Source: Candidatus Woesearchaeota archaeon (GTDB lineage Archaea > Nanobdellota > Nanobdellia > Woesearchaeales > 21-14-0-10-32-9). Taken from it: a stretch of 45,333 nucleotides of DNA. The stretch spans positions 1 to 45,333 of the forward strand of contig SKFY01000014.1 of the NCBI GenBank assembly GCA_007117755.1. The letters are read 5' to 3'. The translations under genes were made by a program, and so were the position numbers. Below, piece after piece: positions 8,827-38,383 of the stretch (the first letter of the stretch is position 1; the number at the start of each line of letters is the position of its first letter). Under the pieces are notes generated by a model, which searched no databases, had not been told where the DNA came from, and saw only the letters and a program-made list of their open reading frames with translations.

Positions 8827-8923
8827 AAAACAATATACTGTACAAGAAAGTATATAAAAGTATTTAATCCGAAAAAGGAATTATTTTAAGAAAGTTTATA
8901 AAGTAAATTTGTTAGTATTAAGT

Positions 8924-9521: not shown

Positions 9522-9748
9522 AAAAATCTGTTAAGATAATATTACTCATATTTATCATACTAATAGTTGTTTTGCTTACAGTAAGAATTGGAACTAATTT
9601 AATCTATACATACAAATACGAATCTTGTATGAAACACGAACCAAGTCCTATTTATGATAATGAAACAAGTACTTGGATAAATAGTTGTCCCGATGGTTGT
9701 AAGTTAGGTAGTTGTTTTGGTGTAAGAACTGCTTGTTGCCCTGAATAA
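9518..9748 (+). CDS. small membrane-anchored six-cysteine protein; possible orphan paralog of the pilin-like knob proteins at 35.4-35.9 kb
   Basis: MKKSVKIILLIFIILIVVLL is followed by a C...C...C...C...CC pattern ending in ACCPE. See the finding on the six-Cys domain. Confidence 0.45.
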   Translation: MKKSVKIILLIFIILIVVLLTVRIGTNLIYTYKYESCMKHEPSPIYDNETSTWINSCPDGCKLGSCFGVRTACCPE

Positions 9749-10506: not shown

Positions 10507-10533
10507 TTTAAAAAAAAAGTAATATGAATAAAA

Positions 10534-10797
10534 GCGTGCCGAGAGATGGACTTAACCTTGCACGCGTGGATTAACCCTTACCATTCCTACTTCCTGCAAC
10601 CCCTCAAACGCCACTAGTCTAGCTTATGGCTGCTCCATTCCTGGCCTGACCAGATTCACAAGCCTAGCGACCAAGAGGGACAGGATATCAACAGTTTGGT
10701 AAAGACCAGCTATGCAAAGCAAGCCTCTCCCTCGGCTTCGTCCCCCACGTAAAGCCGGTTTTGGGTTACAAGGCACGGCTAACGCCCCGGACTAGCA
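10534..10797 (-). ncRNA. signal recognition particle RNA (7S RNA)
   Basis: This is a GC-rich island in AT-rich DNA. The minus strand reads ...CUGGUCAGGCCAGGAAUGGAGCAGCCAUAAGC..., the conserved SRP helix-8 motif (compare the 4.5S/7S consensus GGUCAGGUCCGGAAGGAAGCAGCC). The 5' GCUAGUCCGGGGCG...GUAACC is Alu-domain-like. The ends can pair (GCGU...GCC with GGCACGC). A TATA lies ~27 nt upstream and an oligo-T follows the 3' end. The ends are accurate to about 5 nt. Confidence 0.85.
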
Positions 10798-10817
10798 ATT
10801 ATTTGGTAGTGTATTTG

Positions 10818-20588: not shown

Positions 20589-20900
20589 GGGGTTGGGTGA
20601 GTATAAGCCGCCTTCTGTAAACCTTCCTAGACAGGAACAGGTTTTAGTAGCATTTTACTAAGCCTCTTAAATCCAGAGTTGCATCAGCCAAGGACTCACA
20701 GTTTCATCAAATCTCTTTGTCAAAGTCTAATCCAGACGATTGTCATACCGAACAAAGAGCTGTGTCTTTTCTGAGTGGTTGCCATCCCTATTAAGGATCT
20801 CTACCATTGTTTTTTATGAAGAGTTGGCTTTTTTTTATTTGATGGGCGGACTTTCCTCCTTATAAAAATAAATAAGGATTGCTACTTGTCACCCTACCCT
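20589..20900 (-). ncRNA. rnpB: RNase P RNA
   Basis: The minus strand contains the universal CR-I GGAGGAAAGUCCGCCC and CR-V UUACAGAAGGCGGCUUAUA. The terminal P1 helix pairs GGGUAGGGUGA (5') with UCACCCAACCC (3') with one mismatch. A TATA lies ~30 nt upstream and an oligo-T follows the 3' end. Length is about 312 nt. Confidence 0.85.
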
Positions 20901-23928: not shown

Positions 23929-24975
23929 TTATAAATCATCCAGATCATCCAAAGACATGACTTCTTCATCTAAATCATCATCGTCTTCATAAGATTTTTT
24001 GTTTTTTGAATCATCATCCCCTGTAATTTCTGGCTTTTCCTCTTCTTCAACACTTTGTTTTTCAGGCAGTTTTTTTATTTCTTCATCAGGATCCACATCT
24101 AATTTCATATCATAAACAACAAGCTCTAATCTCTCAAACATCTTATTCTTCTGAATCCTACCACGAAACTTAACCATTTTACCTAGTAAATCAGTCTTTA
24201 CTTCTTCAAAGCCAGAAACATCTTCTTTATACTTATTAAGTTCAGCTTCGGAAACATTCAACAATTTCAATATTTGATCTTTCCATAAAACACATCTTAT
24301 ATTATCACTTCCATCATCAACAAATAAATTAAGAACAGCACCCTCTGTACCATCTTTCATCTGGAAGAATTTAGGATCGAATACTTGAACAATAGTTACG
24401 AAAACCTCTACGTTATTATCTTCTTCTTTTAAGTCACTTATTTTTTTATGCTGAACTTCTGATTGGACTTGTTTAGCTTCCACAGATAAACCTTCCGGAT
24501 TAATTTTTATTTCAGTAGATTTTGAAGCATGAATTTCACTTCTGCCTCTGTTCTCCCTAACATCAACATTACTTATTGATAACACGTCTTCTTCTTTTAC
24601 TTTATTTAATAAATCAGCATTTTCATCCCATAATACTAACATAGTAACTCCTGTTTCGTCACCAATTAATAACCTCGCAACTTTGCCTTGACCGTCTGCT
24701 TTTTCAAATGTTCTTACTTCGTAAGTTCTTAAGACCTTAGCGTTTAAAGAAACGTTTTTCATACCACCTACTATTTTATCAATTTTGGTGACTCCTTCTT
24801 GCTTCATAAGGTCCACGCCGTATTCATTAGCTACTATGTGAGCTGCTCCTTCTTCACTTATTAAACCAGATAATTCTTCAAGTTTGTCATCTATTTTTTT
24901 CTTAACTTCTTCAGCTTTAACTTCTTTGTCAACTACTATTTTTTCAATTATTTGTTCTTTAGAAATATTAATCAT
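23929..24975 (-). CDS. replication protein A-like ssDNA-binding protein (OB folds) with an acidic tail
   Basis: N-terminal ...LSGLISEEGAAHIVANEYGVDL, then the OB-fold pattern VSLNAKVLRTYEVRTFEKADGQGKVARLLIGDETGVTMLVLWDE, a second OB fold, and a C-terminal DDDDLDEEVMSLDDLDDL. Confidence 0.75.
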   Translation of the reverse strand: MINISKEQIIEKIVVDKEVKAEEVKKKIDDKLEELSGLISEEGAAHIVANEYGVDLMKQEGVTKIDKIVGGMKNVSLNAKVLRTYEVRTFEKADGQGKVARLLIGDETGVTMLVLWDENADLLNKVKEEDVLSISNVDVRENRGRSEIHASKSTEIKINPEGLSVEAKQVQSEVQHKKISDLKEEDNNVEVFVTIVQVFDPKFFQMKDGTEGAVLNLFVDDGSDNIRCVLWKDQILKLLNVSEAELNKYKEDVSGFEEVKTDLLGKMVKFRGRIQKNKMFERLELVVYDMKLDVDPDEEIKKLPEKQSVEEEEKPEITGDDDSKNKKSYEDDDDLDEEVMSLDDLDDL

Positions 24976-25088: not shown

Positions 25089-26717
25089 TTAATTAAATAT
25101 AAATGCGAAGTTAATTCTGAAACTTTTAGCTCTTTCCCAAAAATCTACTTTGTTTTTGTAAATATCTTTATTATCTATTACGTGATTATTAGATGCGCAG
25201 AATAAATAATGATTTTTCGTAGGTTGACAAGCTGATTTATTTATTTGAGCTTCACGCATATAAACAGTGTTGTTTTTAACCAGTAATTCTTCTACTCTGC
25301 TTTCTGCTATGTGAAAAGGAAAATTAGTTATTCCCGTTATAGTATTTAGTTTTATACTCGTATTCGTATCAATACTCACTCCTTTAAAAGAAATCATTGA
25401 ATTGTTAAACTCTAAGGTATCCATATAACCAGGAAGTGTTATGTTACAGCTACAATTACCAATACTCGTACTACAGTCTTTTATTTGACGAGCAACATCA
25501 CCTAATAAATATTCTATTCTATAACTAGCATTTGTGTACTCTCCTGCTTTAAATTGATTAAAACGATTAGGTACAATATCTAAGGTTTGTGTTCCTGTTT
25601 GAACACCTCCTTCAATAACTTCTTCAACGTCTGAAACGTTCAGGAATTCTAATGCGACGCCATTATCATATATTAATTCAACATCTCTTTCAAAGTCAAC
25701 TATGAAGACTTCATCATAATAACTATTATTGAAATAAGCTCTTTCTCCACCACTACCTTCAATGAAATCTATTAATTCTCCAGTCACGACTAAGAAATCG
25801 TCATTTGTTGATAAATTCCCGAGATTATAATCGCTTAAAGGACAAGATCTTGAAATACTAACATTCCTATTTCTTTCCAAAACTTCTTGAACACAATTAT
25901 CATAATCATCATTACAACTAGCATGTAAATCATCAACGAAATCAAAAACATCATTATAAAACAATCTCAAACCCCTTATTACATGGGTAAAAGAATAATC
26001 CCCGCGCAACATACCCATAACGGATCCTGACCTTGCGGAAGCACCAACTACATTAGCATTTTCATCTAATAAGTAAATACTAGGGAACATATTGTTAATA
26101 CGATCATCTAAAGCAGATTCATAACTAGTCCTACCCACACCTGTGTATACACCTATTTCGCAACTACCTCTATAATTAGCACCTGAATCTTCTGCTTTAT
26201 ATATTCCGTTCCAATCATTTCCATCGCCCCAATAAATATACACATAACTATTGATGGGTATGTGACAATTAGAATTAGGATCGTCATTAACAGATATGGT
26301 GAATTTAGCAGCGGGATCTGTACGTGTACTAGTAACTCCTTTGTCGAAATCGGCTTCTACTGAGCTTTCTTGTTCAACATCACTTATTGAACGCAAAGAA
26401 TAAACACCTCTGTTTGAAAATCCTCCTATTTCTTGACACATAACGTCTTCAAAAAAACCTCTTTCTTCAAAAGGAATGAAACACCAACCCCTGACACTAG
26501 CATCGAATTCTTCTCCTTTACCAGTACTCCAGTCATCATAATCCTGTCTGTCAGGAGTGTAATAAATAACGCTTTTAATATTAGTAAAGCTAGGTAAAAC
26601 TTCATCATTTTCAATAGTAGATTCTATTTCTCTTATTTGTTCACTACTAATATCAGCCGCGACTAAGGGTAATAATAAAAGTAAAGCCACTAATATTATC
26701 ATACTTGTTTTTTTCAA
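25089..26717 (-). CDS. secreted MltA/3D-domain-like (double-psi beta-barrel) putative murein lytic transglycosylase with an unknown ~300-aa C-terminal region
   Basis: Sec-type signal MKKTSMIILVALLLLLPLVAAD. IYYTP...GFFEDVMCQEIGG resembles MltA (YYEP...FF.QIQGSG). SVNDDPNSNCHIPINSYVYI...YKAEDSGANYRGSCEIGVYTG resembles the 3D domain (VAVDP..IP.G..V.I...A.DTGGAI.G..IDI). The TTG start overlaps the amidase stop (TTGA), with GGAGG 7 nt upstream. Confidence 0.5.
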   Translation of the reverse strand: MKKTSMIILVALLLLLPLVAADISSEQIREIESTIENDEVLPSFTNIKSVIYYTPDRQDYDDWSTGKGEEFDASVRGWCFIPFEERGFFEDVMCQEIGGFSNRGVYSLRSISDVEQESSVEADFDKGVTSTRTDPAAKFTISVNDDPNSNCHIPINSYVYIYWGDGNDWNGIYKAEDSGANYRGSCEIGVYTGVGRTSYESALDDRINNMFPSIYLLDENANVVGASARSGSVMGMLRGDYSFTHVIRGLRLFYNDVFDFVDDLHASCNDDYDNCVQEVLERNRNVSISRSCPLSDYNLGNLSTNDDFLVVTGELIDFIEGSGGERAYFNNSYYDEVFIVDFERDVELIYDNGVALEFLNVSDVEEVIEGGVQTGTQTLDIVPNRFNQFKAGEYTNASYRIEYLLGDVARQIKDCSTSIGNCSCNITLPGYMDTLEFNNSMISFKGVSIDTNTSIKLNTITGITNFPFHIAESRVEELLVKNNTVYMREAQINKSACQPTKNHYLFCASNNHVIDNKDIYKNKVDFWERAKSFRINFAFIFN

Positions 26718-27877
26718 CTTAACTCCTCCATTAATCTGAAAACTTCCGAGTAATTAAAAGCTGGGCCCGGATCAGATTTTTGTCTGTTAATTTCATCATG
26801 ACCAATTATGTGATTCCTATCAACTCTTATATTAGGATGTCTTTCAATAATATCATTAATTAGCTCCGCAGTAGATCTTATTTGTTCGGGAGTGTAAGCT
26901 TCCCAGCATCTACGTTCTCCACTAAGTTGATGAGGTACGTTAGGATTGCCCAAGTAACAACTAGTTACGGGACACGTAGAGTGGGAATAACCACAGCCTA
27001 CTAAACTAATACCTATAGATCGGGAGTTATAACCCGCATCACAAACTTCTTCTGCATAACCTAAACAACCAGCATGATTCGCAACTTTATTTTCATCTAC
27101 AAATTGAAATACTTGACCGTCTTTGTCAATTACGTAATGATAACTGAAACGTCCTTTACCGCCGTTCCACAGAACATTAAAAGTTGAGTCTGCAGAGGTA
27201 GTTACTGTGTAATGCATAACTATGGTATCTACTTGGCCATGTCTAGTTGAGTATGTTAATCCGTCTCTTTGCATGTATCCCCTGCTATTTTCGTAATAAT
27301 CTGTACTTATTGGTTTTTTAAAAGTTATTCTATAATCTCTTAAATCTCTGTAAATAATTGTTTCTAATTGTGATAAGCTATCAATCCTTACTAAATAATC
27401 ATTATTTTTTCCTTCTATGTTTATTTCGTATCCTGGTTGTCTTAAATTACTGGGATGATTAGCAATTGTGGTATAAAAATAAGGTTCTAAATAGTTTGTG
27501 AAACTCTCTTCAATATCCGGTTTGCATTCATTGGTTATAATTGGGTAAATGAATTCTCCACATTCAAATTCTTCTATTTCATGTTCATATGCTTCAACGT
27601 GGTATCCTGAAAAATCATTCAGCACATTTATTGTTTGAGCACTAGCTATTTTCATTGATGAATCTAAATAATTAAATTTTTCTTGTTGCGCGTCATAGGC
27701 GTGCATAACGGATAATTGATTATAACCTATGAATTCTGTTTCTTCTAACGCGGTTAGTAGTAAAAAGAGTGCTCCTACGAAGAATAAGACGAAGGCGAGG
27801 ACTAAGAATAGTAAAGTAACTACGCCTTTTTTGTTATTTGGTGAGTTCCCCATAATTTTTTTTCCCATAAAAAACAT
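26714..27877 (-). CDS. N-acetylmuramoyl-L-alanine amidase (Amidase_2/PGRP fold) behind a class III signal/TM anchor
   Basis: C-terminal domain DTIVMHYTVT...FSYHYVIDKDGQVFQFVDENKVANHAG...YNSRSIGISLVG...YTPEQIRSTAELINDIIERH...IIGHDEI...KSDPGPAF matches the Amidase_2 consensus (H.T...sYHy.Id.dG.i.q.v....A.HAg..N..SIGIe..G...yT..Q...l..L......I.gH.e....K.DPGp.F). The N-terminus is ...NNKKG|VVTLLFLVLAFVLFFVGALFLLL. Confidence 0.8.
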   Translation of the reverse strand: MFFMGKKIMGNSPNNKKGVVTLLFLVLAFVLFFVGALFLLLTALEETEFIGYNQLSVMHAYDAQQEKFNYLDSSMKIASAQTINVLNDFSGYHVEAYEHEIEEFECGEFIYPIITNECKPDIEESFTNYLEPYFYTTIANHPSNLRQPGYEINIEGKNNDYLVRIDSLSQLETIIYRDLRDYRITFKKPISTDYYENSRGYMQRDGLTYSTRHGQVDTIVMHYTVTTSADSTFNVLWNGGKGRFSYHYVIDKDGQVFQFVDENKVANHAGCLGYAEEVCDAGYNSRSIGISLVGCGYSHSTCPVTSCYLGNPNVPHQLSGERRCWEAYTPEQIRSTAELINDIIERHPNIRVDRNHIIGHDEINRQKSDPGPAFNYSEVFRLMEELS

Positions 27878-27897: not shown

Positions 27898-28440
27898 TTA
27901 ACGACCACCTCTAGAAGGTCTAGGAACGAAGTATTCTGAAATACTCCTAACATCATCACTTGGTTTTATTAGTGTTGCAATAAAATAATAATCTTCACCC
28001 ATCATATTAGGCGTTAATTGAGGTTGACCAAAATCTAAAAACCTATATTGAATAGGAGCTCCCTTGGTGCAATCAAAATCCTCATCTTCAACTTTTTTTA
28101 TCCTAAAAACTAATTCGTTCCTACGAGAAATGCCTACTTCCTCATGTACAAAATCACTTAGTTTTTCTTTGAAACTTTCACATTTGTCTTCGTTCATATA
28201 CTCTACTAATAAATCAGCTACTGTGTTATTATTATTAGTATTATTAACAGGTAATCTGACAAGTGAATTCGTGAATGTTTGAGATTCTAAAAGCTTAGCT
28301 TCAGCTAAAAACCTATTTTTATTTTCTTGAATAGAACTGTTAAGAACAAACATTAACACTATACCTATTAGTATTAACATACCGAGAGCCATGAAAGCCC
28401 CTAAAAACTTCTCCATAATACCTTTTTTTCCTAATATCAT
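27898..28440 (-). CDS. type IV pilin-like (class III signal) protein, function unknown
   Basis: N-terminus MILGKKG|IMEKFLGAFMALGMLILIGIVLMFV; 180 aa. Confidence 0.55.
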   Translation of the reverse strand: MILGKKGIMEKFLGAFMALGMLILIGIVLMFVLNSSIQENKNRFLAEAKLLESQTFTNSLVRLPVNNTNNNNTVADLLVEYMNEDKCESFKEKLSDFVHEEVGISRRNELVFRIKKVEDEDFDCTKGAPIQYRFLDFGQPQLTPNMMGEDYYFIATLIKPSDDVRSISEYFVPRPSRGGR

Positions 28441-28447
28441 TTTATTT

Positions 28448-28906
28448 TCATATGTATAAATACGTAATTTTTAAAACTCCTATGCTACCATTTATAAAAA
28501 CGGGATACTCGAAAAATAATTGGTCACCGGTTAATAAAACCATTACGTTCTCAGTCTCAACATAACCTGTTTGTAAATCACCTGAAGAGTTAAAATAAGA
28601 ATACTCCACTATTAAACCACCTTCGAAACGACTTTTTAAAGGAATACAATCTTTAAAGTCTTCCTCGTTAAACTTGTTTAAATCTATACTGCCAAAACCA
28701 TGATTTTCATCAATCAAACAGTCTCTTAACAAAACAGATTCATAAATCTGATATTGAACAACAGGAAAAACCCCACTAGATAACTCACTAATATTACCCG
28801 CGTAAGCTGTAGAGAAAGAAAAAACAATAAGTAAAAAAGGCAACACAACTAATAAGAAGTAAAATAAGTGGTCAGCTTCAGTCATACTTAAAACGCCTTT
28901 TTTCAA
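28448..28906 (-). CDS. type IV pilin-like (class III signal) protein, function unknown
   Basis: The TTG start overlaps the upstream stop (TTGA), with GGAGG 7 nt upstream. N-terminus (M)KKG|VLSMTEADHLFYFLLVVLPFLLIVF. Confidence 0.55.
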   Translation of the reverse strand: MKKGVLSMTEADHLFYFLLVVLPFLLIVFSFSTAYAGNISELSSGVFPVVQYQIYESVLLRDCLIDENHGFGSIDLNKFNEEDFKDCIPLKSRFEGGLIVEYSYFNSSGDLQTGYVETENVMVLLTGDQLFFEYPVFINGSIGVLKITYLYI

Positions 28907-29688
28907 TTTGTAACCTCCATTATCTCATCAGCTAATGAAAAACTATAACGACTACCACTATATTCGTTAGGTAACCAAATAACTAAGATGTTCTCCATAA
29001 TAACTTCTTCACGATAACTATTAACACCCATTTCCCTCATGTTAGCACCTAAAAAACAACCAAGTTTACGGTACTCGGGGAAACGCTCAGGATACCTGAC
29101 CATAAAAGGACCGTCATGAAGACCGATAAATAAAAGTATGTCTGCTTGATGATCAAAAGTAGGTATTGGATAACCGTTAAAACCGAGATGATGATTGAGA
29201 TTCTCCACGAAATTAAAACTACCAACACCTATAGAATTTACTTTTACAATCCTATTATCTAAAATACCTGGTAAACTATTACAAAAAGATCTTAATTCAC
29301 CAATATCTTTAATCCCGAATTCTAATTCATCACCTTGCCTATAAATAGGTAAAGTAACACCTCTTTGAGATGTGAAACCAATTACTTCAACACCAGTAAA
29401 AGTTCTGAACTCACTCACGTCACTACCTTCCAAACTAGAAACCCTTACGCTATCACTACTTACAACCTCTAACAAATAATTAGGTCCTGCGCTATAAACA
29501 ATTTCTACGTCGCTACGCGAAGCAGTAACGGACTCTATTAATAAAGCTAAATCCCTGCTGAATAATTCTTCTTGACTAGAAACGCCGTAGTTTAGAAGAT
29601 TCATCATGCCAAATAATATCAGAGCGCCTATAGCTACGTTAAAGCCAGTAAAGAAAACCATTTGAACAGAATTTCCTTTTTTATTCAT
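28903..29688 (-). CDS. type IV pilin-like (class III signal) protein, function unknown
   Basis: I prefer ATG 29688 (GGAGG 6 nt upstream, TAATG overlap with the upstream stop) to the track's TTG at 29715. N-terminus MNKKG|NSVQMVFFTGFNVAIGALILFGMM. Confidence 0.55.
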   Translation of the reverse strand: MNKKGNSVQMVFFTGFNVAIGALILFGMMNLLNYGVSSQEELFSRDLALLIESVTASRSDVEIVYSAGPNYLLEVVSSDSVRVSSLEGSDVSEFRTFTGVEVIGFTSQRGVTLPIYRQGDELEFGIKDIGELRSFCNSLPGILDNRIVKVNSIGVGSFNFVENLNHHLGFNGYPIPTFDHQADILLFIGLHDGPFMVRYPERFPEYRKLGCFLGANMREMGVNSYREEVIMENILVIWLPNEYSGSRYSFSLADEIMEVTN

Positions 29689-30386
29689 TAAGAACCTCCT
29701 GGTGTTGGAGAACAATTATTATCGGAAGAAAAGCAAAAACTAATAACACCACCTTCTTTTTTAGTTAAATAAAAATAAGAGTCACGCACGAGATCATGAC
29801 GGATGCCGAAACTGTTAGTCCATTTAGCAGTATCTGCATCTGGATCGACAACATCCGGATTGACAACATCCTGATCGTCAGGATAAGCATCTTCAAACAT
29901 TATTTCTTCTTCAATAACATAGTTTTCAAAGGACAAACAAGAATACTCGCTGCAAGAATACTCTATAGTAATCATCTCACCATGTCTTTCATTAAATCTT
30001 TGCACTCCTTGATTACATAAACAAATACACAGATTATTAGAGTCGCAAGAACTAGGTTTAAAATTGCTTGTTACATCAGAAAAAAGATGACGATTGCGCG
30101 AAATAGCCAAAGGACCAGGCTTATAATCATATTCACTATCAGGGTTTAAAAAAACTATTTTTGAATCAGGCTTTAAACTAAATCTGAAAGACTCCGTGGA
30201 GCCTTCATCCATGCTAATTAAAGTTTCTTCTAAATAATTCGTGAAAATTTCTAATTCTGTAGTATCCTCTCCGAAGAAATAACTTCCTAAACGAACAGTG
30301 AAAGTACAGGAAGCAATAAATAAAGACATAAATAAAACTAGGCTTAATATCCTAAAATACATAGTGCTAGTCTGTCCTTTTCTCAA
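29688..30386 (-). CDS. type IV pilin-like (class III signal) Cys-rich protein, function unknown
   Basis: TTG start with AGAGGT 8 nt upstream. N-terminus (M)RKG|QTSTMYFRILSLVLFMSLFIAS. It contains a Cys cluster SSCDSNNLCICLCNQG...YSCSEYSC. Confidence 0.55.
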   Translation of the reverse strand: MRKGQTSTMYFRILSLVLFMSLFIASCTFTVRLGSYFFGEDTTELEIFTNYLEETLISMDEGSTESFRFSLKPDSKIVFLNPDSEYDYKPGPLAISRNRHLFSDVTSNFKPSSCDSNNLCICLCNQGVQRFNERHGEMITIEYSCSEYSCLSFENYVIEEEIMFEDAYPDDQDVVNPDVVDPDADTAKWTNSFGIRHDLVRDSYFYLTKKEGGVISFCFSSDNNCSPTPGGS

Positions 30387-30393
30387 AATAAAA

Positions 30394-30567
30394 TTACCTC
30401 TTTATTAAAAAAAATATTAGTAGTCCTAAATCAACATCTCCCGCGCCTGCTATACCTTCTAATAATCCTCCGCTGTGGTTAAATGCGAGGTATCCTAGTA
30501 GTAAAACTAGCAGTCCTAACACGAAATATATTAGTTCTTGTATTCCTAATGCACCTTTTTTTTTCAT
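30394..30567 (-). CDS. mini pilin-like ORF (57 aa; not in ORF track)
   Basis: Hand translation gives MKKKGALGIQELIYFVLGLLVLLLGYLAFNHSGGLLEGIAGAGDVDLGLLIFFLIKR. Its N-terminus closely parallels that of the 590-aa protein (KKAMGIREVIYWLIGIV). Confidence 0.5.
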   Translation of the reverse strand: MKKKGALGIQELIYFVLGLLVLLLGYLAFNHSGGLLEGIAGAGDVDLGLLIFFLIKR

Positions 30568-30620
30568 CACGTCATCACCCTTGTTGTTAAGTTATTAAAT
30601 CTTTTAATTTTTAAAACTTT

Positions 30621-32012
30621 TTAATTAAGCTCATCAAATGAAATATAGCCATAATTATCAGCATAACTTGCTACATTGGAGTTAGGAGGCCCTATGAAGA
30701 TTACTTCACCATTACCTCTAAATGCATCCTCAAGAATCCTGGAAACATCACCTCTAAATATAACTTCATTTAAGTTATTATCATCAAAAGCTTTTTCTCC
30801 TATAAGTTCTAAACTTTCAGGGAATTCAACCCTTGTTAAATTATTTGATCTGAAAGCAAAATCCCTTATTTCTTCAATATTATTCCCGAATTTGACTTCA
30901 GACAATTCATTCATACTAAAAGCATGAATACCTATAGACTTAATACTGTCTCCAAATTCAACTTTTGATAACTTATTTTCACTGAAAGCACCACTTGGAA
31001 TAGTATCAATTGTATCAGGAAACTCTACAGACTCTAAGTTTTTACGTTTAAAAGCGTCCTGAGCAAGTGCAACAACCGTTCTACCATCTATTTCCCGAGG
31101 AATTACTAAACGGGTTTGTGGAGGTGCATAATCGCTGAAACCCCAAACCGCGATAGAATTATCCCCCCGTGCAGAATACATAAAAATGTTATAACCTGCT
31201 AAATTTCTAGAATTATCATCACAAAACGCATCGTGTTCTATCATCCTTTTTTTTAAAGTGACAACATCATCAAAATCAGTATCTAAGCAACCTGGTCTTA
31301 TAATATCCCTAATAATAGGCATTGTTCTAGCAGGATCCCTACAAGCTGTAACGTGAGCATTCACCACTCTTCTCCCAGTTACGGGAATGAAACAAATATT
31401 ATCCTGGTTTTTTAATATGTATAAAAAATAATTGTGTGAATATCTATAATTTATTTTTTTTTTTTTTTCTAAAAGTAAGCTTTCCCATTCTTCAAAAGAT
31501 AAACTTTCAACACGTGAAAAATCTATATTAGATGGATAAAGACCTCTATTATAATCCCTAATTTCATCATATAAAGATTTGGCTTCTTGTTCTCCATAAA
31601 CTACGCAAGGTTTTAAATCGTTAAATTCATGACGTTGTATTACATTCTCCCCACTATAAAGTTCTAAACGAGTTACTGAATTTTCCTCTTTTAAACTTAT
31701 AGAGAAATCATTGTCAAAAAAACTCTTGTGAAAAATATCAATTACTCCAAAACAAAAATTTTCATCAGACTCCACCACGTTTGTTAATTGATTGCGAAAA
31801 CCCGAGAATACATCCATAGCATCACGCTGATCCATAACTATAACTTCTCTACCCCCTCCGGATCTACTACGCTCAGAAAAATCTAAAAAATCAATTGCCC
31901 TATCAAAAGTAGGTAATAAGCCAGACTGTATACTGTTAAAGATGAATATTAAGAATAAGACTACTATAACTGCGGATACAAGCGTTACAGCACTCAAACC
32001 TTTTTTATTCAT
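30621..32012 (-). CDS. class III signal protein with C-terminal BspA-type leucine-rich repeats
   Basis: N-terminus MNKKG|LSAVTLVSAVIVVLFLIFIF. The C-terminal ~140 aa hold ~23-aa repeats (FPDTIDTIPSGAFSENKLSKVEF / GDSIKSIGIHAFSMNELSEVKF / GNNIEEIRDFAFRSNNLTRVEF / PESLELIGEKAFDDNNLNEVIF). Confidence 0.7.
   Translation of the reverse strand: MNKKGLSAVTLVSAVIVVLFLIFIFNSIQSGLLPTFDRAIDFLDFSERSRSGGGREVIVMDQRDAMDVFSGFRNQLTNVVESDENFCFGVIDIFHKSFFDNDFSISLKEENSVTRLELYSGENVIQRHEFNDLKPCVVYGEQEAKSLYDEIRDYNRGLYPSNIDFSRVESLSFEEWESLLLEKKKKINYRYSHNYFLYILKNQDNICFIPVTGRRVVNAHVTACRDPARTMPIIRDIIRPGCLDTDFDDVVTLKKRMIEHDAFCDDNSRNLAGYNIFMYSARGDNSIAVWGFSDYAPPQTRLVIPREIDGRTVVALAQDAFKRKNLESVEFPDTIDTIPSGAFSENKLSKVEFGDSIKSIGIHAFSMNELSEVKFGNNIEEIRDFAFRSNNLTRVEFPESLELIGEKAFDDNNLNEVIFRGDVSRILEDAFRGNGEVIFIGPPNSNVASYADNYGYISFDELN
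30692..31115 (-). repeat. protein-level LRR (BspA/LRR_5-type) repeat block inside the CDS
   Basis: About 5-6 units with the ..I..IG..AF....L..V.F periodicity. Confidence 0.65.
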
Positions 32013-32146
32013 CCGAACGTTACCTCTATCAAATTAAAAAATTCTCCACTTAATGTGTATATGAAATATATTATTACGGCAAGGGTAATAGCTATAGCAA
32101 CCCATTTTCCTAATTCACTAAATAATATATTGGCTTTTTTATTCAA
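32009..32146 (-). CDS. mini pilin-like ORF (45 aa, TTG start; not in ORF track)
   Basis: (M)NKKANILFSELGKWVAIAITLAVIIYFIYTLSGEFFNLIEVTFG. Its TTG overlaps the upstream stop (TTGAATAA) and its TGA overlaps the downstream ATG (ATGA). Length is 138 nt in frame. Confidence 0.45.
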   Translation of the reverse strand: MNKKANILFSELGKWVAIAITLAVIIYFIYTLSGEFFNLIEVTFG

Positions 32147-33473
32147 TTAAATCACACTCATCAAATATTTCACTAGCAGGAGCTATGATCAAAGCATTAT
32201 TACCTATTATGTCCGGACTGAATAATCTGTGATCACTGTCAAAAATTCTTTTGTACCACGCAGGTACGTCACTAGTGCTTACGAAAGCGACGTAGTAAGG
32301 AACAGATATGTTAATATCTTTTACGATAGGAGGGAATCTCATACCATCAGATATTTCAAACATGTAAGAATCACCAGGTATTACGTCAGAGCTTAAATCA
32401 GTTATTTTTAAAGTATCGTGAAGCTCTATTAAAGTATTTATTATAGCCTGGCCTAATTCTTGTACCGAAGAAACTTCAGAGCCTACTCCTTGATAGAAAT
32501 GTTTACTTAGTAAAGGTCTTATTTGTTCTCTTAATATTCTTGATTCATGATCACTGCCTATTAATAAACGCACTTCCTCATTTTGAATACCAAGCATTAA
32601 CATTACTCCTTGACGGGTAGATGCGTTATCTAATGCTATGTTATCAGCTATTTGTCTAGTTCGAGATAATGCTAAGCTATTGAATTCTTCAGCTACTACA
32701 ACAAATAAATCCCCTATGTTATCTTCTCTAAAATCCTGACCTAAACTTTGTATTTCGTTTAAAACATCATGGCTTAGTCTTCCAGAATAATCACTTACGT
32801 AAATGAAGTCGCTTTCATCAATTAATCGAGATCTTATACTTCTATGCATCAGGATTTCATGATCAGAAGGAGGACTTAAACGAGTTTGGAATTCGAAAGA
32901 AGCACTTATATACTCATAACTAGCTCCTCCTCTTAGTACTGGAGGATTATAAACTGTGTTCACCCAATAATTTACTACTTCTTCTGCAGAGATTGTTTTT
33001 TCATTACTATTACCCATATCAGGACGATAATCAATAGGGTAATCACTTATGTTACCTTCGAATTCATCCCCTATAAATCTGAATCTTGAACATACACCAC
33101 AAGCTTTTCCACTCTCCAGTCTTTGCTGTCCAAAAACGTCAAGTACTTGTCCGTCAGCGAATTTATACCAACACTCAGCAGCCAATTCACTTATAGTATT
33201 TAGAGCATCGTCCCTAGTGGATACTTCTACGTCTTTAGCTTCGCCAGTTTTACAAAATAAAGGAGGGAGTATGTCGTCTCCGAATATACCTATGTCTATA
33301 AAGTATCTGTCTCTTGCTAATACCGATTTTCTACACAATTCTATGTCTGCTGAGTCCGTAGCGGCTCTTATTATAGTTGCGTAGGCTATGCTGAGTATTC
33401 CACTAACTAATATTATTAATATTAAAACAACAAGTGTTTTCCTGGTTAATCCTTTTCTATACGCCAATACCAA
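32139..33473 (-). CDS. class III signal protein with a TPM-like domain
   Basis: N-terminus ...YRKG|LTRKTLVVLILIILVSGIL (TTG start at 33473 or 33467). The segment VSDYSGRLSHDVLNEIQSL...LFVVVAEEF...IADNIALDNASTRQGVMLMLGIQNEEVRLLIGSDHESRIL follows the TPM-domain pattern (V.D.A.lLs....l...l...i.vvtv....A..lf..w.iG....nGVLLLva..dR.vRIevGyGLE). Confidence 0.5.
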   Translation of the reverse strand: MVLAYRKGLTRKTLVVLILIILVSGILSIAYATIIRAATDSADIELCRKSVLARDRYFIDIGIFGDDILPPLFCKTGEAKDVEVSTRDDALNTISELAAECWYKFADGQVLDVFGQQRLESGKACGVCSRFRFIGDEFEGNISDYPIDYRPDMGNSNEKTISAEEVVNYWVNTVYNPPVLRGGASYEYISASFEFQTRLSPPSDHEILMHRSIRSRLIDESDFIYVSDYSGRLSHDVLNEIQSLGQDFREDNIGDLFVVVAEEFNSLALSRTRQIADNIALDNASTRQGVMLMLGIQNEEVRLLIGSDHESRILREQIRPLLSKHFYQGVGSEVSSVQELGQAIINTLIELHDTLKITDLSSDVIPGDSYMFEISDGMRFPPIVKDINISVPYYVAFVSTSDVPAWYKRIFDSDHRLFSPDIIGNNALIIAPASEIFDECDLIE

Positions 33474-33573
33474 TCACCCTGGCAGCTATTATTAGTATAG
33501 CTCCACATACTAAAATAGTTAATATAATTATCATTAATTGTTCTAAACTCATTAATCCTTTTTTTTTAACCAT
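33457..33573 (-). CDS. mini pilin-like ORF (38 aa; not in ORF track)
   Basis: MVKKKGLMSLEQLMIIILTILVCGAILIIAARVIGIGV is a class III-type N-terminus and helix only. Its 3' end overlaps the start of the next gene. Confidence 0.45.
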   Translation of the reverse strand: MVKKKGLMSLEQLMIIILTILVCGAILIIAARVIGIGV

Positions 33574-33623
33574 AACTTTCTCATTATGAATAGTCATAGA
33601 AGTGGTATTTAAAAGTTTCTTAA

Positions 33624-35396
33624 TCAGATAATATCAATGTATAATCTGTAATTATCTTGCACACTACTTCCTAGTTGGTTATATAGGCCAACGTTTAACG
33701 TGAATGTTTGTCCGGGTTCGGCACCTGGTATGCTTAAAGGGTTTAAATCTTTACAATCTTTATAAGATATGGTAGTGTCTACCCCGGGTCCTGTTAATGA
33801 TCCTGAACACTTAGCCGTATAATAATCATTTTCAATCCCGAAACTTATGTCTACATGATTATCAAAAGGCGGGTTTAAAGAGGCAGTGACTGTTTTTGTT
33901 CTTTGATTATTCATCTCGTAATCAACACTATTAACTCTAAATGTTAAATAAGGAGGATCTGTTATTACGTTAAAATACCTTCTTTGTTCGTCTACTATTG
34001 TCGCGTCTTCTCGTAATATCGTGATTAATTGATATCTTCCTATATCATCAGATCTTAAAGTTATGAAGTCGCTTAATGATAATTCGCTAGAACAACTACT
34101 TGTATCTCCCCAGACTTCTTGACCTTCTTGGTTTTGTATAGAGTAAGAACAAGTAAGTTCTTCATGGCTTCCAGTATATTTGACAGCGAGTGTTAAAACT
34201 ACTTCTTCGTCTGAAGAAACAGGTATTTCCGCAGGGAATGATTGGAAGTCTAGTAAGTCTTCATAATCGTCTATGCCGAATAAAGTGTATAATCGTGGAG
34301 ATTCAAAACTAGAATCTCTTGTTTGTAAAACCACTCTATACGTTGCTAGTTGAGAAGTGGTTTCTTCTCCGAATAATCTGAAAATTAGTTCATACTCAGC
34401 GTCTCTGATAAAGTTTTCAACATCATAATTTATTCTTATAGGTAATAACATTAAGTTTGAACAGCCTGAAATATCACTTCCTAAAAGATTTTGTGGAGAG
34501 CCAGCTTCGTTTAGTTTCCAGAAGTGGTAACCGCATTGTTTTACATTACTACCTTTGATATTGCTAACTTCTAAAAACACACTACTTAAAAACTCGCTAT
34601 CTTGTTTTAACTTTACTAAATCCACAGGTATTGTATTAACAGCTTCTTTTGAAAGGTGTATTGTTCTTCCATAAAGTTTAAAATCTGCACTAGCAGGAGT
34701 TACTATTTGAGGAGGCGGAGGAGGAGTTACAGGTTCAATAGTTGTCTCATCTGTTACTTCAGGAGGTTCTTCATCCGGAGGTATTACTGTGAAAGGTATT
34801 ATTACACTAGTCAGTATTTCTTCTTCTACACTAACTATTACTGTGAGTGTGTAAGAACCTACTTCTTCTTGAGAAAGACGGAATGTGTTATTGAAAATTT
34901 CTTCATTTTCATCTGTTTTAATGCTCGCTGTATAGTTCCAAGACATGTTGTTAGAAGCTATTCTACCATTGGAATCAGTCATTCTAATACTAAGATTGAA
35001 TTCTCGTATGTTATCAACCCATAATTCATAAGTGTAATTATTAGGAACTTGCAGTGTTTGTCTTTGATTATGCCTTACGACTTCATTATCTTCTTTTCTA
35101 ATTTGTATAATAGGAGGATCTTGAGTATCTACAGGCCTTCCTCCTGGTCTGAAATTAGTAGCGTTTACACAACATACTTGATTGGGGACGATGCTACCGT
35201 CTGATAATTTACATTGAGAAGAAGCTCTTATTTCTTGAGGTCCGCAAGAGTCCCTGCATTCTCCTGGGCAAATGCTTATTTGGTCTCCGAAGGGATCCCA
35301 GGCTTGGTATATACCGTATAAGATAGTTGTGAAAATAACTATGCCTATAAGCCAGTATATTACTTCTCTAATACCCATGGCTTTTTTGTTTAGCAT
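33624..35396 (-). CDS. large pilin-like (class III signal) protein: six-Cys knob, beta-rich repeats and a Pro-rich linker
   Basis: N-terminus MLNKKA|MGIREVIYWLIGIVIFTTILYG. Then ICPGECRDSCGPQEIRASSQCKLSDGSIVPNQVCCVN and the Pro-rich PPDEEPPEVTDETTIEPVTPPPPPQIVTP. Length is 590 aa. Confidence 0.6.
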   Translation of the reverse strand: MLNKKAMGIREVIYWLIGIVIFTTILYGIYQAWDPFGDQISICPGECRDSCGPQEIRASSQCKLSDGSIVPNQVCCVNATNFRPGGRPVDTQDPPIIQIRKEDNEVVRHNQRQTLQVPNNYTYELWVDNIREFNLSIRMTDSNGRIASNNMSWNYTASIKTDENEEIFNNTFRLSQEEVGSYTLTVIVSVEEEILTSVIIPFTVIPPDEEPPEVTDETTIEPVTPPPPPQIVTPASADFKLYGRTIHLSKEAVNTIPVDLVKLKQDSEFLSSVFLEVSNIKGSNVKQCGYHFWKLNEAGSPQNLLGSDISGCSNLMLLPIRINYDVENFIRDAEYELIFRLFGEETTSQLATYRVVLQTRDSSFESPRLYTLFGIDDYEDLLDFQSFPAEIPVSSDEEVVLTLAVKYTGSHEELTCSYSIQNQEGQEVWGDTSSCSSELSLSDFITLRSDDIGRYQLITILREDATIVDEQRRYFNVITDPPYLTFRVNSVDYEMNNQRTKTVTASLNPPFDNHVDISFGIENDYYTAKCSGSLTGPGVDTTISYKDCKDLNPLSIPGAEPGQTFTLNVGLYNQLGSSVQDNYRLYIDII

Positions 35397-35403
35397 GGGA
35401 TTA

Positions 35404-35643
35404 TCAACCCCCTACATGACAACAATAAGGACGATTAGGTTGACAACTATTATCACCATCAGGTAAATGAGCAGGTCCGCAGAATTCGGCTTGACACCTA
35501 CCTCCTAATCTGCTACAAGAAGCCGCGTCGTCCCAGCCATCCGCTGTGGTAAAGAATATATAAATCAGAGTTACCATAACTAACAGAGCTATTATTACAA
35601 CAACGACTGTAGTTATGGTTAATTCTGCTTTTTTATTTATCAT
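35404..35643 (-). CDS. small type IV pilin-like protein with a six-cysteine knob (candidate major subunit)
   Basis: 79 aa. MINKKA|ELTITTVVVVIIALLVMVTLIYIFF, then SCSRLGGRCQAEFCGPAHLPDGDNSCQPNRPYCCHVGG. Confidence 0.6.
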   Translation of the reverse strand: MINKKAELTITTVVVVIIALLVMVTLIYIFFTTADGWDDAASCSRLGGRCQAEFCGPAHLPDGDNSCQPNRPYCCHVGG

Positions 35644-35668
35644 ACTTTTGACAACTCACTTCTTTTTA

Positions 35669-35935
35669 TTATTGTGGTACACAACAAACTTCTCCATCAG
35701 GACATGAATAGCTAGGAGCTCTAACGTACGTAACATCTGGATTAGCTAGTGTTAATTCTTCACAACCTAGTTCTACTGGTTGACACTGAGCATCTCTTTC
35801 TAGAGAAACACATCTAGTTCCTTCGAAGACACTAGAACCTGCATTGAATACTAAAACTGCTAATATAACAAGTACTATCATAGCTAACGCCGCTGCTACG
35901 ACAACATTAAGACTTAATTCTGCTTTTTTAAACAT
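35669..35935 (-). CDS. small type IV pilin-like protein with a six-cysteine knob (candidate major subunit)
   Basis: 88 aa. MFKKA|ELSLNVVVAAALAMIVLVILAVLVF, then RCVSLERDAQCQPVELGCEELT...YSCPDGEVCCVPQ. GAGGTG lies 7 nt upstream of the ATG. Confidence 0.6.
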   Translation of the reverse strand: MFKKAELSLNVVVAAALAMIVLVILAVLVFNAGSSVFEGTRCVSLERDAQCQPVELGCEELTLANPDVTYVRAPSYSCPDGEVCCVPQ

Positions 35936-36011
35936 TATGACACCTCTTAGTTTACAAGGACTATTCTCATTTATAAATTTTTCTAAAAACCACGCCTAAA
36001 AAAAGTTTTTT

Positions 36012-36527
36012 TTATGTGCAGATTCTTATTTTAAAAAATACTACGACGTTGGTAAAACCTTCCCTTACGTTTTTAGGCGTGAATAATTCAAAACCTTGCC
36101 TGTTTTCAGCACATTCATTGGCTAAATAAGTTATTGTTCCAGAAGGACTTGTACGACTCACATTTATAAAGTATCTTAAGCCATACTCGTCAAAAGTATC
36201 ACCTACCATTTCTTTAAGAGTATCGTTAAAAAAAACACAAGCATCATAATAATCCCCGCATTCAAAAGTAGGCAGATCAAGTATACATTGTTCTAATACT
36301 TCACCCATATTTTTTTGTTTATCATTAGCGTCTTTACAAACAGTTTCGCTGTTAAAAAAAGCCGTTGCGAAATTCTCAATTAATTGACGTTCAGCAAAGG
36401 AATCATCGGGAGCCACCGATGAATCAGAAGAGTCTAATAAGAATACTAGTACGAAAAATAAAACTAGTGTTATTAATATAACTATTATTAACAAACCTAC
36501 TATTTCCATCTGGCTTTTTTTTCTCAT
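36012..36527 (-). CDS. type IV pilin-like (class III signal) protein, minor-pilin candidate
   Basis: MRKKS|QMEIVGLLIIVILITLVLFFVLVFLL. Its ATG overlaps the upstream stop (ATGA). Confidence 0.55.
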   Translation of the reverse strand: MRKKSQMEIVGLLIIVILITLVLFFVLVFLLDSSDSSVAPDDSFAERQLIENFATAFFNSETVCKDANDKQKNMGEVLEQCILDLPTFECGDYYDACVFFNDTLKEMVGDTFDEYGLRYFINVSRTSPSGTITYLANECAENRQGFELFTPKNVREGFTNVVVFFKIRICT

Positions 36528-37003
36528 TGAACACTAACCTCTAATATTGCAAAATAAGTTTTTTTATCTACGGGATGATAAACATTAATTGGATAAAAAG
36601 TTCTTTCTATACGCCTATTTTCTTGTAAATTATCAAAGAAGTTTATTGATTCATTGATTTGAAGAGTGGTGTTTAAATCATCATATATTATCAATGTTAA
36701 GTTAACATTGCCCATTCTTCTTATGTAATAAGGGTCGTCTTGTAAATTCTTAAAAGCTTTAACTTTAAAATAATCAAAGCATTTGTAACCTATAGTAGCT
36801 ACTTCACTTGTACAAGTGAATTCTTCCATGTTAGATATTCTTAAACTGGTGCTTAAAATGTCTAGATCAGACTCGTCTTCTAGTAAAGATTGTGTCTGGG
36901 TAGTTCTGAAATTGGATAAATAAACTAATCCTATGATTATTAAAATCATTACTATTATAACTACGGTTATTGATTCCCCGCTTTGAATTTGTGCTTTTTT
37001 CAT
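36524..37003 (-). CDS. type IV pilin-like (class III signal) protein, minor-pilin candidate
   Basis: MKKA|QIQSGESITVVIIVMILIIIGLVYL; 159 aa. Confidence 0.55.
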   Translation of the reverse strand: MKKAQIQSGESITVVIIVMILIIIGLVYLSNFRTTQTQSLLEDESDLDILSTSLRISNMEEFTCTSEVATIGYKCFDYFKVKAFKNLQDDPYYIRRMGNVNLTLIIYDDLNTTLQINESINFFDNLQENRRIERTFYPINVYHPVDKKTYFAILEVSVQ

Positions 37004-37027: not shown

Positions 37028-37876
37028 TTAATATATTCTTGGAAGATTACGGTTTCTTAAAAGATCATTAACCGAAGCCAATTCATTCCTATTAGCAGGA
37101 CTCGGTATTTCTTCTTCTTCAAATATAGGTAGTACTTGGTGATAAAAAGTTATGCTTACCGATTCGTTTAATTCGTAAGTCCTATTGTAATAAACTTTAT
37201 TTATAGCCCTAGTTCTTTCCTGTATTTTATCCATTGTGCAATTAAATAAATCTTCATCACCAGTTATTATAAAACCCATTTTTAAAACATCAATATCAAT
37301 ACCTTCATATTCAACTCCATTAACAACCAAATCATCACCTGTTACGTCTATGTTTATAACATCTCTAAAACCAGGAGGAACATAATTTAACGACTTGGAT
37401 ATTTCACCCGGGAACAAATCAAAATAATACTTTGCATCATTTGAAAAGTTATAATGCGTCATGTTATCAACTAAAAAAGTCACTCTCCCCACAGGATAAG
37501 GCACATTTAAAACAGTAGACCAACTTATTAATCTAGACTCCCCCACCCTAGGAGGAGAAAACAATAAGTCTTGTTCTAAATGAACACTACCCACACTATT
37601 TTCTAAAGAAAACCTATGACCATCAATACCACAAGAAAATATGAGTAAACGATTAAAAGGAGTCGTGGATATCCTAACACTATCCACACTAGACTCGTAA
37701 GAACTCAGAACAATACTCATTCTTTCCATCACAGTCCTTCCTAATTGATCAGAAGTAGCATCAGTTTCGAAACTAATGACGTTATAAAACAATACTAATA
37801 TCGCAGCTCCAGCTACTAATACGAACACCCAATTAAAAGATATTTCTATTTGAGCTTTATTAAACATGAAAACCAT
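37028..37876 (-). CDS. type IV pilin-like (class III signal) protein, minor-pilin candidate
   Basis: MVFMFNKA|QIEISFNWVFVLVAGAAILVLFY. AGGTGAAGG lies upstream of ATG 37876. An alternative ATG is at 37867. Confidence 0.55.
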   Translation of the reverse strand: MVFMFNKAQIEISFNWVFVLVAGAAILVLFYNVISFETDATSDQLGRTVMERMSIVLSSYESSVDSVRISTTPFNRLLIFSCGIDGHRFSLENSVGSVHLEQDLLFSPPRVGESRLISWSTVLNVPYPVGRVTFLVDNMTHYNFSNDAKYYFDLFPGEISKSLNYVPPGFRDVINIDVTGDDLVVNGVEYEGIDIDVLKMGFIITGDEDLFNCTMDKIQERTRAINKVYYNRTYELNESVSITFYHQVLPIFEEEEIPSPANRNELASVNDLLRNRNLPRIY

Positions 37877-37912: not shown

Positions 37913-38383
37913 TTATTCATCAACACTAATCACGACTTCTCCACGATGACCAAGCATGACAAAAGATATGCTACCCACAGAGGATTCTGCACAAGTAATA
38001 TTTTGCCCAGCATATAAATTATCAAATCGTAACGCGTCAATTAAAATGTTATCATCAAATAAGAATATGTTATTATGATCATCAAGACTTAACTCAGTCC
38101 CTATTATATCAGTCGCAGCAAGATCATGCGCCCCGCCTTCATCGTTATTTGCGAAACAAACACTACTTATATAATTAGATCTGTACTCAACATCCCTAAC
38201 ACTACCATGACTAGTAGTCCTAGACAAATCCCTTAATAAGTCAGATTTTAAACGAACCAGTTCGACTTCTTCACCCCTATCTAAAATATTAATAATACTC
38301 CTATAACCAACTAATAATAAAGCACCAACTACTAATATAACCATTAAATAAATAAAAACTTGTTGAACTTGTGATTTTCTCAT
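37913..38383 (-). CDS. type IV pilin-like (class III signal) protein, minor-pilin candidate
   Basis: MRKS|QVQQVFIYLMVILVVGALLLVGY. It starts 1 nt after the stop of the giant gene. Confidence 0.55.
   Translation of the reverse strand: MRKSQVQQVFIYLMVILVVGALLLVGYRSIINILDRGEEVELVRLKSDLLRDLSRTTSHGSVRDVEYRSNYISSVCFANNDEGGAHDLAATDIIGTELSLDDHNNIFLFDDNILIDALRFDNLYAGQNITCAESSVGSISFVMLGHRGEVVISVDE

Follow-up and report, generated by a model that had tools for sequence, protein, structure and literature searches.

What kind of surface structure could be built from proteins that carry a knob of six cysteines directly behind a pilin-type helix is the question raised by a locus of Candidatus Woesearchaeota archaeon, one of the tiny archaea of symbiotic type (DPANN); we analysed it within a 45,333-nucleotide stretch of DNA (the window; assembly GCA_007117755.1, contig SKFY01000014.1, positions 1 to 45,333). 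About 17 consecutive minus-strand genes, running from 45284 down to 25089, encode proteins nearly all of which have a class-III prepilin-type N-terminus, with a short basic leader ending in [KR][G/A/S] and then a long hydrophobic segment. Three of them, of 88, 79 and 590 amino acids (p88, p79 and p590), bear the knob; an earlier note on this DNA had pointed to the shared layout, had added a distant open reading frame (ORF) as a fourth member and had not recognised the domain. Our answer is a type-IV-pilin-like protein whose defensin-type head is without precedent and whose locus is conserved and has not been described. With moderate confidence, which applies to the pilin character, the nature of the head and the assembly taken together, we propose to regard p88 and p79 as small type-IV-pilin-like proteins of archaea, each headed by a β-defensin-like mini-domain; they would form a type-IV-pilus-like filament for contact with bacteria.

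The six-cysteine layout after the helix is indeed common to the three clustered proteins, and cysteine positions, full-length comparisons and profile scores agree on this. The cysteines are found at residues 42, 51, 58, 78, 84 and 85 of p88 (loops 8/6/19/5), 43, 50, 55, 67, 74 and 75 of p79 (loops 6/4/11/6), and 43, 47, 51, 62, 75 and 76 of p590 (loops 3/3/10/12); position 35169, at which the earlier note had let the region begin, is the final base of the p590 knob. With a slash marking the end of the leader, the N-termini read MFKKA/E in p88 (MFKKA/ELSLN...), MINKKA/E in p79 and MLNKKA/M in p590. The 79-residue protein, with the knob spacing C-x6-C-x4-C-x11-C-x6-CC and the motif SRLGGRC, is a family-typical, β-defensin-like member; p88 represents a subtype with a long third loop, the members of which end in CC[VI]xQ; and p590 combines the shared helix and a compact knob (CPGECRDSC...) with a Pro/Gly linker and a C-terminal region of about 500 residues, for which only a weak Wzt_C match below the Pfam cut-off was obtained.

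A regular expression for the pattern C..C..C..C..CC matched exactly four of the 143 six-frame ORFs of at least 40 amino acids, namely p88, p79, p590 and the distant 76-residue ORF p76, while the chance expectation among the 54 likely proteins is 0.02 matches with pooled composition and 0.14 with each protein shuffled. Compared pairwise with phmmer, the knobs alone gave 1-4.5 bits, that is, no detectable similarity; at full length, the comparison of p79 with the N-terminal part of p590 gave 19.7 bits and that with p88 17.6 bits, whereas the other pilin-like N-termini of the cluster did not exceed 9.6 bits. A family hidden Markov model (HMM) built without any window sequence gave 77.8 bits for p79, 77.0 for p88, 29.5 for the p590 N-terminus and 5.7 for p76 with the full model (other pilin-like N-termini, at most 8.7), and 31.3 bits for p79, 18.2 for the p590 N-terminus, 13.2 for p88 and -1.9 for p76 with the knob alone. 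These scores place three of the four proteins within the family and p76 outside it. The proposed fourth member (cysteines at 37, 57, 61, 66, 73 and 74; loops 19/3/4/6) therefore had to be given up: besides its failure on both models, it scores zero or below in full-length comparison with the clustered proteins, its first loop has 19 residues and its third 4, where the family has 2-12 and 8-21, respectively, it belongs to a separate operon beside a Peptidase_C39-like gene, and it has only the cysteine count in common with them.

Both the family and the cysteine spacing extend well beyond the source genome, so that neither of the two sequence-based conditions named in the earlier note as refuting its reading applies. 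We searched exhaustively with HMMER, using a profile built from the N-terminal modules of p88, p79 and p590, and obtained 643 representative proteins at E<=1e-3. The best 150 of these are almost all 74-100 residues long, with the same leader and helix and a linker of about ten residues, and exactly six cysteines are present in 136 of the 145 small proteins among them. All three window types have counterparts: P0004 is p79-like; P0023, P0044, P0071 and P0094 are p88-like, with the long third loop and the C-terminal CC[VI]xQ, as is an 85-residue gene product of locus L003; and P0003 (493 residues) and P0069 (240 residues) are p590-like and retain the knob, P0003 with the identical spacing 3/3/10/12. 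A second search with the family alignment added 364 proteins, none with a Pfam domain, which are unnamed or called 'hypothetical protein' apart from one 'uncharacterized membrane protein', and whose organism labels, where given, are almost always Woesearchaeota, Nanoarchaeota, Nanobdellota or plain 'archaeon'. Among GTDB species genomes we found 62 loci, all in archaeal metagenome-assembled genomes of the Woesearchaeota/Nanoarchaeota/Nanobdellota group with a GC content of 0.25-0.63; that scan used a single helix pattern and so undercounts the family. Default MAFFT left the cysteines out of register whereas a BLOSUM30 run aligned them, but in leave-one-out trials the better register did not alter the power of the profile.

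In every source the family is either unnamed or termed hypothetical. The window knob proteins have no match in Pfam or NCBIfam at E<=0.01, and the knob-only sequences none in Pfam even at E<=10; p79 and p590, used as queries in word-index homology searches, retrieved nothing but themselves and one identical ENA contig, and a search of PDB sequences with p79 alone yielded only chance matches to C-type lectins. The knob genes are present in an independent public gene call. Full-text literature searches turned up no account of the family or the locus, nor of an archaeal β-defensin-like domain. A few records carry other labels: thirteen of the loci (L005, L006, L010, L011, L015, L018, L022, L034, L036, L042, L049, L052 and L065) are titled 'uncultured Methanosarcinales archaeon', and P0175 is attributed to a Bacteroidota bacterium although it is of the Woesearchaeota-type family; these are probably labelling or binning errors.

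The N-terminal half of the small proteins has the features of a pilin. Lysine occupies position -2 in 92% of family members, with G or A at -1. Entropy is 1.44 bits in the helix versus 3.18 bits at the non-cysteine positions of the knob; many helix positions are at least 90% identical over a very wide GC and taxonomic range, the knob loops are near maximal variability around invariant cysteines and an invariant glycine, and the linker ranks second in variability. AlphaFold, run for p79 on a 120-sequence alignment, predicts a helix over residues 10-40 (pLDDT about 96) and a small β head, at a whole-protein pLDDT of 77.7. A conserved helix with a hypervariable head is the classic signature of a filament-forming pilin, in which the helix is buried and the head is exposed and diversifies. 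Both p88 and p79 would consist of a leader ending in KK[A/G], a hydrophobic helix of 25-30 residues, a linker of about ten residues and an extracellular head of 33-44 residues with three predicted disulfides. That they are the polymerising major subunits, as the earlier note had suggested for these two small proteins, is plausible in view of the conserved helix, the variable head and a candidate promoter of their own.

The head itself, which the earlier note had left unrecognised, can be recognised by its framework, its deduced connectivity and its predicted fold, all of which are of the β-defensin type. The dominant spacing in the family is C-x6-C-x3-6-C-x10-14-C-x5-6-CC, the first loop being x6 in 115 of 145 proteins and the third mostly x10-14, and the β-defensin consensus is C-x(4-8)-C-x(3-5)-C-x(9-13)-C-x(4-7)-CC. 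The loops of p79 fit this six-cysteine framework (human β-defensin 1, hBD1, has 6/4/9/6), and p88 and p590 are outliers of the same frame. The first loop of p79, C-SRLGGR-C, resembles that of human β-defensin 3 (hBD3), C-RVRGGR-C. In addition, a glycine two residues before the second cysteine (G48 in p79, which reads GGRC) is present in 91% of 143 members and invariant in alignment A8, and β-defensins likewise conserve G-x-C.

The disulfide connectivity can be approached through natural losses of cysteine. Among 468 aligned members, 405 have all six; in eleven proteins, which come from about ten genomes, C2 and C4 are both missing, and ten have neither C3 nor C6, whereas 15 apparent losses of C2 alone proved to be alignment artefacts with all six cysteines present. 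The paired losses point to C2-C4 and C3-C6 disulfides and, by elimination, to C1-C5, which is the connectivity of β-defensins; in p79 the bonds would be C43-C74, C50-C67 and C55-C75. The knottin connectivity (C1-C4, C2-C5, C3-C6) was rejected, as it does not explain the paired loss of both C2+C4 and C3+C6, and so was that of α-defensins (C1-C6, C2-C4, C3-C5), which is at odds with the two paired losses taken together. The four-cysteine proteins form two subfamilies that amount to natural experiments on disulfide wiring: large downstream paralogues (L001:10322-11419 and others in L004, L006-L008, L049, L058, L064 and L065) have lost C2 and C4, with W, Y or L in place of C2, and a clade of small proteins with an NPAFD motif (P0073, P0081, P0209, P0240, P0247 and P0256) has lost C3 and C6, its CC having become C[YW].

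Searched against all PDB sequences, the knob-only profile gave 32 matches at E<=10, all of which are β-defensins, big defensins or defensin-like peptides. The best was DEFB106 (E=1.5e-4), two oyster big defensins scored E=7e-4 and 2.5e-3, and the others included the tick carboxypeptidase inhibitor, mBD8, RK-1, hBD1, AvBD3, helianthamide, gallin, crotamine and platypus DLP-1. A control profile, in which the loop columns were shuffled between fixed cysteine columns, gave 3 matches, the best at E=0.2. Alignment by hhalign to 13 β-defensins and big defensins reached a probability of 88.9% (P=2.4e-6), versus 53.9% (P=1.3e-4) for the shuffled control. Weak matches to Pfam Defensin_beta_2 and Defensin_beta were obtained for 27 and 21 of 76 knobs, respectively, and one member that was checked, the knob of P0086, exceeds the PF00711 cut-off (22.1 versus 21 bits); the window proteins reach neither Pfam defensin cut-off (PF00711, PF13841), p590 scoring 13.2 bits where 22.2 are required. 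Structure prediction, which had been suggested as a check, gives a helix with a small β head: the p79 knob modelled alone (pLDDT 80.1, pTM 0.54) has two strands and a bridge by DSSP, and in Foldseek the top 11 PDB matches of whole p79 and the top 13 of the knob are all β-defensins (hBD1, hBD2, mBD8 and AvBD3), with TM-scores of 0.43-0.56 and root-mean-square deviations of 2.5-4 Å. The Foldseek E-values (>=0.7) are not significant, a common outcome for domains this small (about 35 residues). Overall, the proposal of a compact head, predicted to be disulfide-stabilised and placed right after the pilin-type helix, is supported.

The genomic setting is conserved as well. The family lies in a conserved locus that comprises about 15-18 genes, nearly all for pilin-like proteins, and L001, L003, L067 and dozens of GTDB loci have the same gene order as the window. 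In first place stand one or two giant proteins, followed by a pilin-like protein (about 165 residues) and members of the p282, p159 and p171 families; then come, in some cases, two proteins of about 300 residues, followed by 1-5 small knob genes; further pilin-like families and a murein hydrolase with a pilin-like N-terminus of its own complete the order. Homologues of the upstream half (giant protein, p156, p282, p159 and p171) occur in this order in 22-37 of 65 related loci, the giant-protein homologues standing at the head of 22. The trio of the window is repeated in L003, where a p88-type and a p79-type gene precede one for a large knob-bearing protein, and ORFs of about 300-700 residues that match the knob expression adjoin the small knob genes in 16 related loci. 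By its architecture, p590 is probably a minor or tip subunit and would serve to display a binding domain. The hydrolase family with the pilin-like N-terminus is found in 45 of the 65 loci, and the enzyme that closes the locus differs in its domains, being Amidase_2 in the window, SLT+NlpC/P60 in L037, VanY and Amidase_2 in L003 and NLPC_P60 in L067. Archaea of this group lack murein, so that such hydrolases point to bacterial targets, and we infer that bacteria are the target of the locus.

A sigma-70 promoter and intrinsic-terminator scan is uninformative for an archaeon, and TATA-like motifs and intergenic gaps were analysed instead. The intergenic region in front of p88 contains a TATA-like box, TTTATAAAT, at 35969-35977 (-42 to -34 from the p88 ATG) and a GAGGTG at 35941-35946 (-11 to -6 of the start codon). 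In the related loci the median gap upstream of the first knob gene is 129 nt, versus at most 8 nt for most genes of the cluster, and a TATA-like motif precedes the first knob gene in 14 of 22 cases, versus at most 8% for most other cluster families. To judge from these motifs and gaps, the region is likely an internal promoter, from which the knob genes would be transcribed as a unit of their own, probably strongly. The exception among the other cluster families is the f303 family (about 300 residues, e.g., L043:14113-15024), with a TATA-like motif in 9 of 22 cases and an upstream gap of about 45 nt, which together suggest a further internal promoter.

Taken together, these observations are consistent with a model in which a prepilin peptidase would remove the short leader, and the conserved helices of p88 and p79 would pack as the core of a thin type-IV-pilus-like filament, so that the rigid, hypervariable and mostly anionic disulfide-locked knobs might form its surface lattice. 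The 590-residue protein, the other pilin-like proteins and the murein hydrolase, whose N-termini match, could use these to enter the structure as minor or tip subunits, and the assembly may allow the archaeon to attach to a bacterial partner or prey and to digest its wall locally. Several results weigh against this reading. Where the pilin is concerned, no curated pilin N-terminal model in Pfam or NCBIfam matches the window proteins; no T2SE-type assembly ATPase lies within 10 kb of the 65 loci, and no TadC/PilC platform gene or prepilin peptidase in the window or within the same distance of those loci. Archaeal pilin genes are often unlinked to their assembly machinery. As for the head, the hhalign control still reaches P=1.3e-4, so that the greater part of the signal, but not the whole of it, is due to the cysteine framework; the Foldseek matches are not significant, as noted above, and the pLDDT of the knob is only about 65-89. 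The knobs also differ from defensins in being on average anionic (net charge -2.6 in the mean; about -3 for p79) and in staying fused to a membrane or filament helix. Finally, many hosts of the family may inhabit anoxic habitats, where extracellular disulfides are not assured.

The absence of a linked ATPase or platform gene would also suit an arrangement in which the pilin-type N-terminus is a mere membrane anchor, or in which a short pseudopilus or bindosome-like assembly presents hydrolases and adhesins, with the knob proteins as scaffolding and without a long filament. Enzymes of the locus (Amidase_2, SLT+NlpC/P60, VanY) have class-III-type N-termini as well, which recalls the Sulfolobus bindosome, and pilin-like genes make up nearly the whole locus, more than a simple pilus needs. 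However, the helix is conserved far beyond what an anchor requires, the hypervariable head is typical of a major pilin, and the knob genes occur in tandem copies with a probable promoter of their own; we consider this arrangement unlikely, if worth keeping in view. The sequence, framework and predicted fold of the knob, all of them like those of β-defensins and big defensins, together with the co-located murein hydrolases, might instead suggest that the N-terminus serves only for export and that the knob is set free to act on bacteria or competitors as a soluble toxin or antimicrobial peptide of the defensin-like kind. There is no conserved cleavage site between helix and knob, the linker being second in variability; the helix is conserved more than any other part, unexpectedly for a disposable signal; the knobs are mostly anionic; and in p590 and its relatives the knob has the helix on one side and a large domain on the other. 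We regard release as very unlikely.

Two further explanations concern the cysteines. The six cysteines could bind a metal (Zn or Fe-S) or stay reduced, the resemblance to defensins being coincidental, and it is true that many habitats of DPANN archaea are anoxic, that the disulfides are deduced rather than observed and that the Foldseek scores are not significant. But the domain is on the extracellular side of a pilin-type helix, cysteine losses strictly affect the pairs C2+C4 and C3+C6, which is the behaviour of disulfide partners, the CC doublet and the spacing are those of a disulfide framework, and the profile matches exceed the yield of cysteine spacing alone, which makes coordination or a reduced state highly improbable in our judgement. 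That the pattern arose by chance in short ORFs that may not even be coding could have been argued from the low pairwise scores of the knobs alone (1-4.5 bits) and from the word-index searches that found only the queries; this is already refuted by four observed matches where 0.02-0.14 were expected, by hundreds of homologues with invariant cysteines, by conserved synteny and by the independent gene call. We retain the filament of pilin-like proteins with β-defensin-like heads as the best reading. A bolder version of it, in which the knob is a true homologue of animal β- and big defensins and a pilus-displayed head that binds the envelope (e.g., lipid II or peptidoglycan) and works with the pilin-anchored murein hydrolases to attach to bacteria and breach their walls, is quite doubtful; the relation of the head to animal defensins could be common descent or convergence, either being compatible with the data.

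Among known systems, the archaeal type IV pilins, such as Methanococcus maripaludis MMP1685/EpdE, Sulfolobus AapB and Haloferax PilA1-6, are closest in design: their short basic leader ends in [KR][GA], the hydrophobic helix behind it (about 25 residues) is conserved, and the C-terminal head is small and variable; their genes, too, are clustered with other pilin-like genes, and the MMP1685 pre-protein is similarly very short. They differ in that their head is usually a β-sheet or Ig-like domain and not a six-cysteine mini-domain of about 35-45 residues, while the knob locus has no linked ATPase or platform gene and no curated pilin model matches it. Modular type IV pilins, such as PilB and PilC of Streptococcus sanguinis, which display an adhesin on the pilus, parallel p590 and its relatives in that a full pilin module (here helix and knob) is followed by a large extra domain; p590 departs from them in its defensin-like mini-head and in its unrelated, unannotated C-terminal domain with the sub-threshold Wzt_C match. 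The Sulfolobus bindosome consists of sugar-binding proteins with class III signal peptides; like it, the locus equips non-structural proteins (here murein hydrolases and TPM- and LRR-domain proteins) with prepilin-type N-termini, presumably for assembly at the surface, but the cargo (cell-wall hydrolases and adhesin-like proteins) and the lineage are others, and no BasEF-type genes were seen in the locus. In a 2016 census of archaeal type IV pili, the locus types do not include a composition of giant protein and murein hydrolase, and DPANN and Woesearchaeota are unmentioned (PMC4858521). With the trans-defensin superfamily (Pfam PF00711, PF13841 and PF14862) the knob has in common the framework, the glycine before C2, the deduced connectivity and, by prediction, a small β structure; trans-defensins, however, are animal proteins, secreted with a Sec signal and propeptide, and cationic, whereas the knob is archaeal, fused to a pilin helix and mostly anionic. 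In the literature consulted, trans-defensins are assigned to vertebrates and some invertebrates only (PMC11561630). If a true homologue, the knob would be the first trans-defensin domain outside Metazoa.

A framework of the β-defensin type, with the matching deduced connectivity and predicted fold, is now found in Archaea, and whether ancient homology or striking convergence, it is of interest for defensin evolution. The family is large and unannotated, with hundreds of clusters at 50% identity and dozens of species labelled Woesearchaeota, Nanoarchaeota or Nanobdellota. Its locus represents the best current candidate for a cell-cell contact apparatus of these uncultured archaea, and the pilin-anchored murein hydrolases suggest bacterial partners, which bears on the question of their hosts. 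In addition, the knob would rank among the smallest known globular pilin heads and could be an attractive rigid scaffold with hypervariable loops.

Table. Coordinates of the locus, of other features of the window and of the hydrolases that close related loci (window positions unless a locus is named; p followed by a number, protein length in residues).
Feature	Coordinates	Strand	Remarks
Giant surface protein, 2299 aa	38385-45284	-	heads the locus; possibly cut by the window end
p156	37913-38383	-	pilin-like
p282	37028-37876	-	pilin-like
p159	36524-37003	-	pilin-like
p171	36012-36527	-	pilin-like
Intergenic region 5' of p88, 76 nt	35936-36011	-	TATA-like box and GAGGTG
p88	35669-35935	-	prepilin-like knob protein; knob 35681-35812
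p79	35404-35643	-	prepilin-like knob protein; knob 35419-35517
p590	33624-35396	-	modular pilin-like protein; knob 35169-35270
p46	33457-33597	-
p444	32139-33473	-	TPM domain
p45	32009-32146	-
p463	30621-32012	-	LRR_5
p58	30394-30570	-
p232	29688-30386	-
p270	28903-29715	-
p152	28448-28906	-
p180	27898-28440	-
p387	26714-27877	-	Amidase_2 murein hydrolase, pilin-like N-terminus
p542	25089-26717	-
RPA-like OB-fold gene	23929-24975	-	directly adjoins the locus
RNase P RNA, archaeal	20591-20898	-
SRP RNA, archaeal	10528-10802	-
p76	9518-9748	+	transmembrane helix and six Cys (C-x19-C-x3-C-x4-C-x6-CC); outside the knob family
46-aa ORF	9381-9521	+	GWELV motif
Peptidase_C39-like ORF	8909-9394	+
Hydrolase of L037	L037:18312-20261		SLT+NlpC/P60
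Hydrolase of L003	L003:17852-20252		VanY and Amidase_2
Hydrolase of L067	L067:18162-20354		NLPC_P60

Recognisable domains are few in the cluster, being confined to the Amidase_2, LRR_5 and TPM domains listed in the Table. The giant ORF has repeated domains, C-terminal cysteine modules of the CGGPCxxC type, a transmembrane segment and a Ser/Lys-rich tail. Three of the smallest ORFs, p46, p45 and p58, comprise barely more than a prepilin-like leader and helix, and p58 scores 20 bits on the knob-family HMM; genes of 34-64 residues that resemble them occupy corresponding places in L001, L003 and L067. Homologues of the adjoining RPA-like OB-fold gene are present in 17 of the 65 related loci, so that conservation of the neighbourhood reaches past the pilin-like genes.

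Outside the pilin-like cluster the window contains housekeeping genes, and no pilus ATPase, platform protein or prepilin peptidase was found in it. The GC content of the contig is low (about 0.26-0.38), and the archaeal signal recognition particle (SRP) RNA and RNase P RNA genes are useful anchors for its taxonomic placement. The operon that ends with p76 (8909-9748) is a compact plus-strand unit of three ORFs with 4-nt overlaps; its bacteriocin-processing-type peptidase, next to the cysteine-rich membrane peptide p76, might belong to a distinct peptide system.

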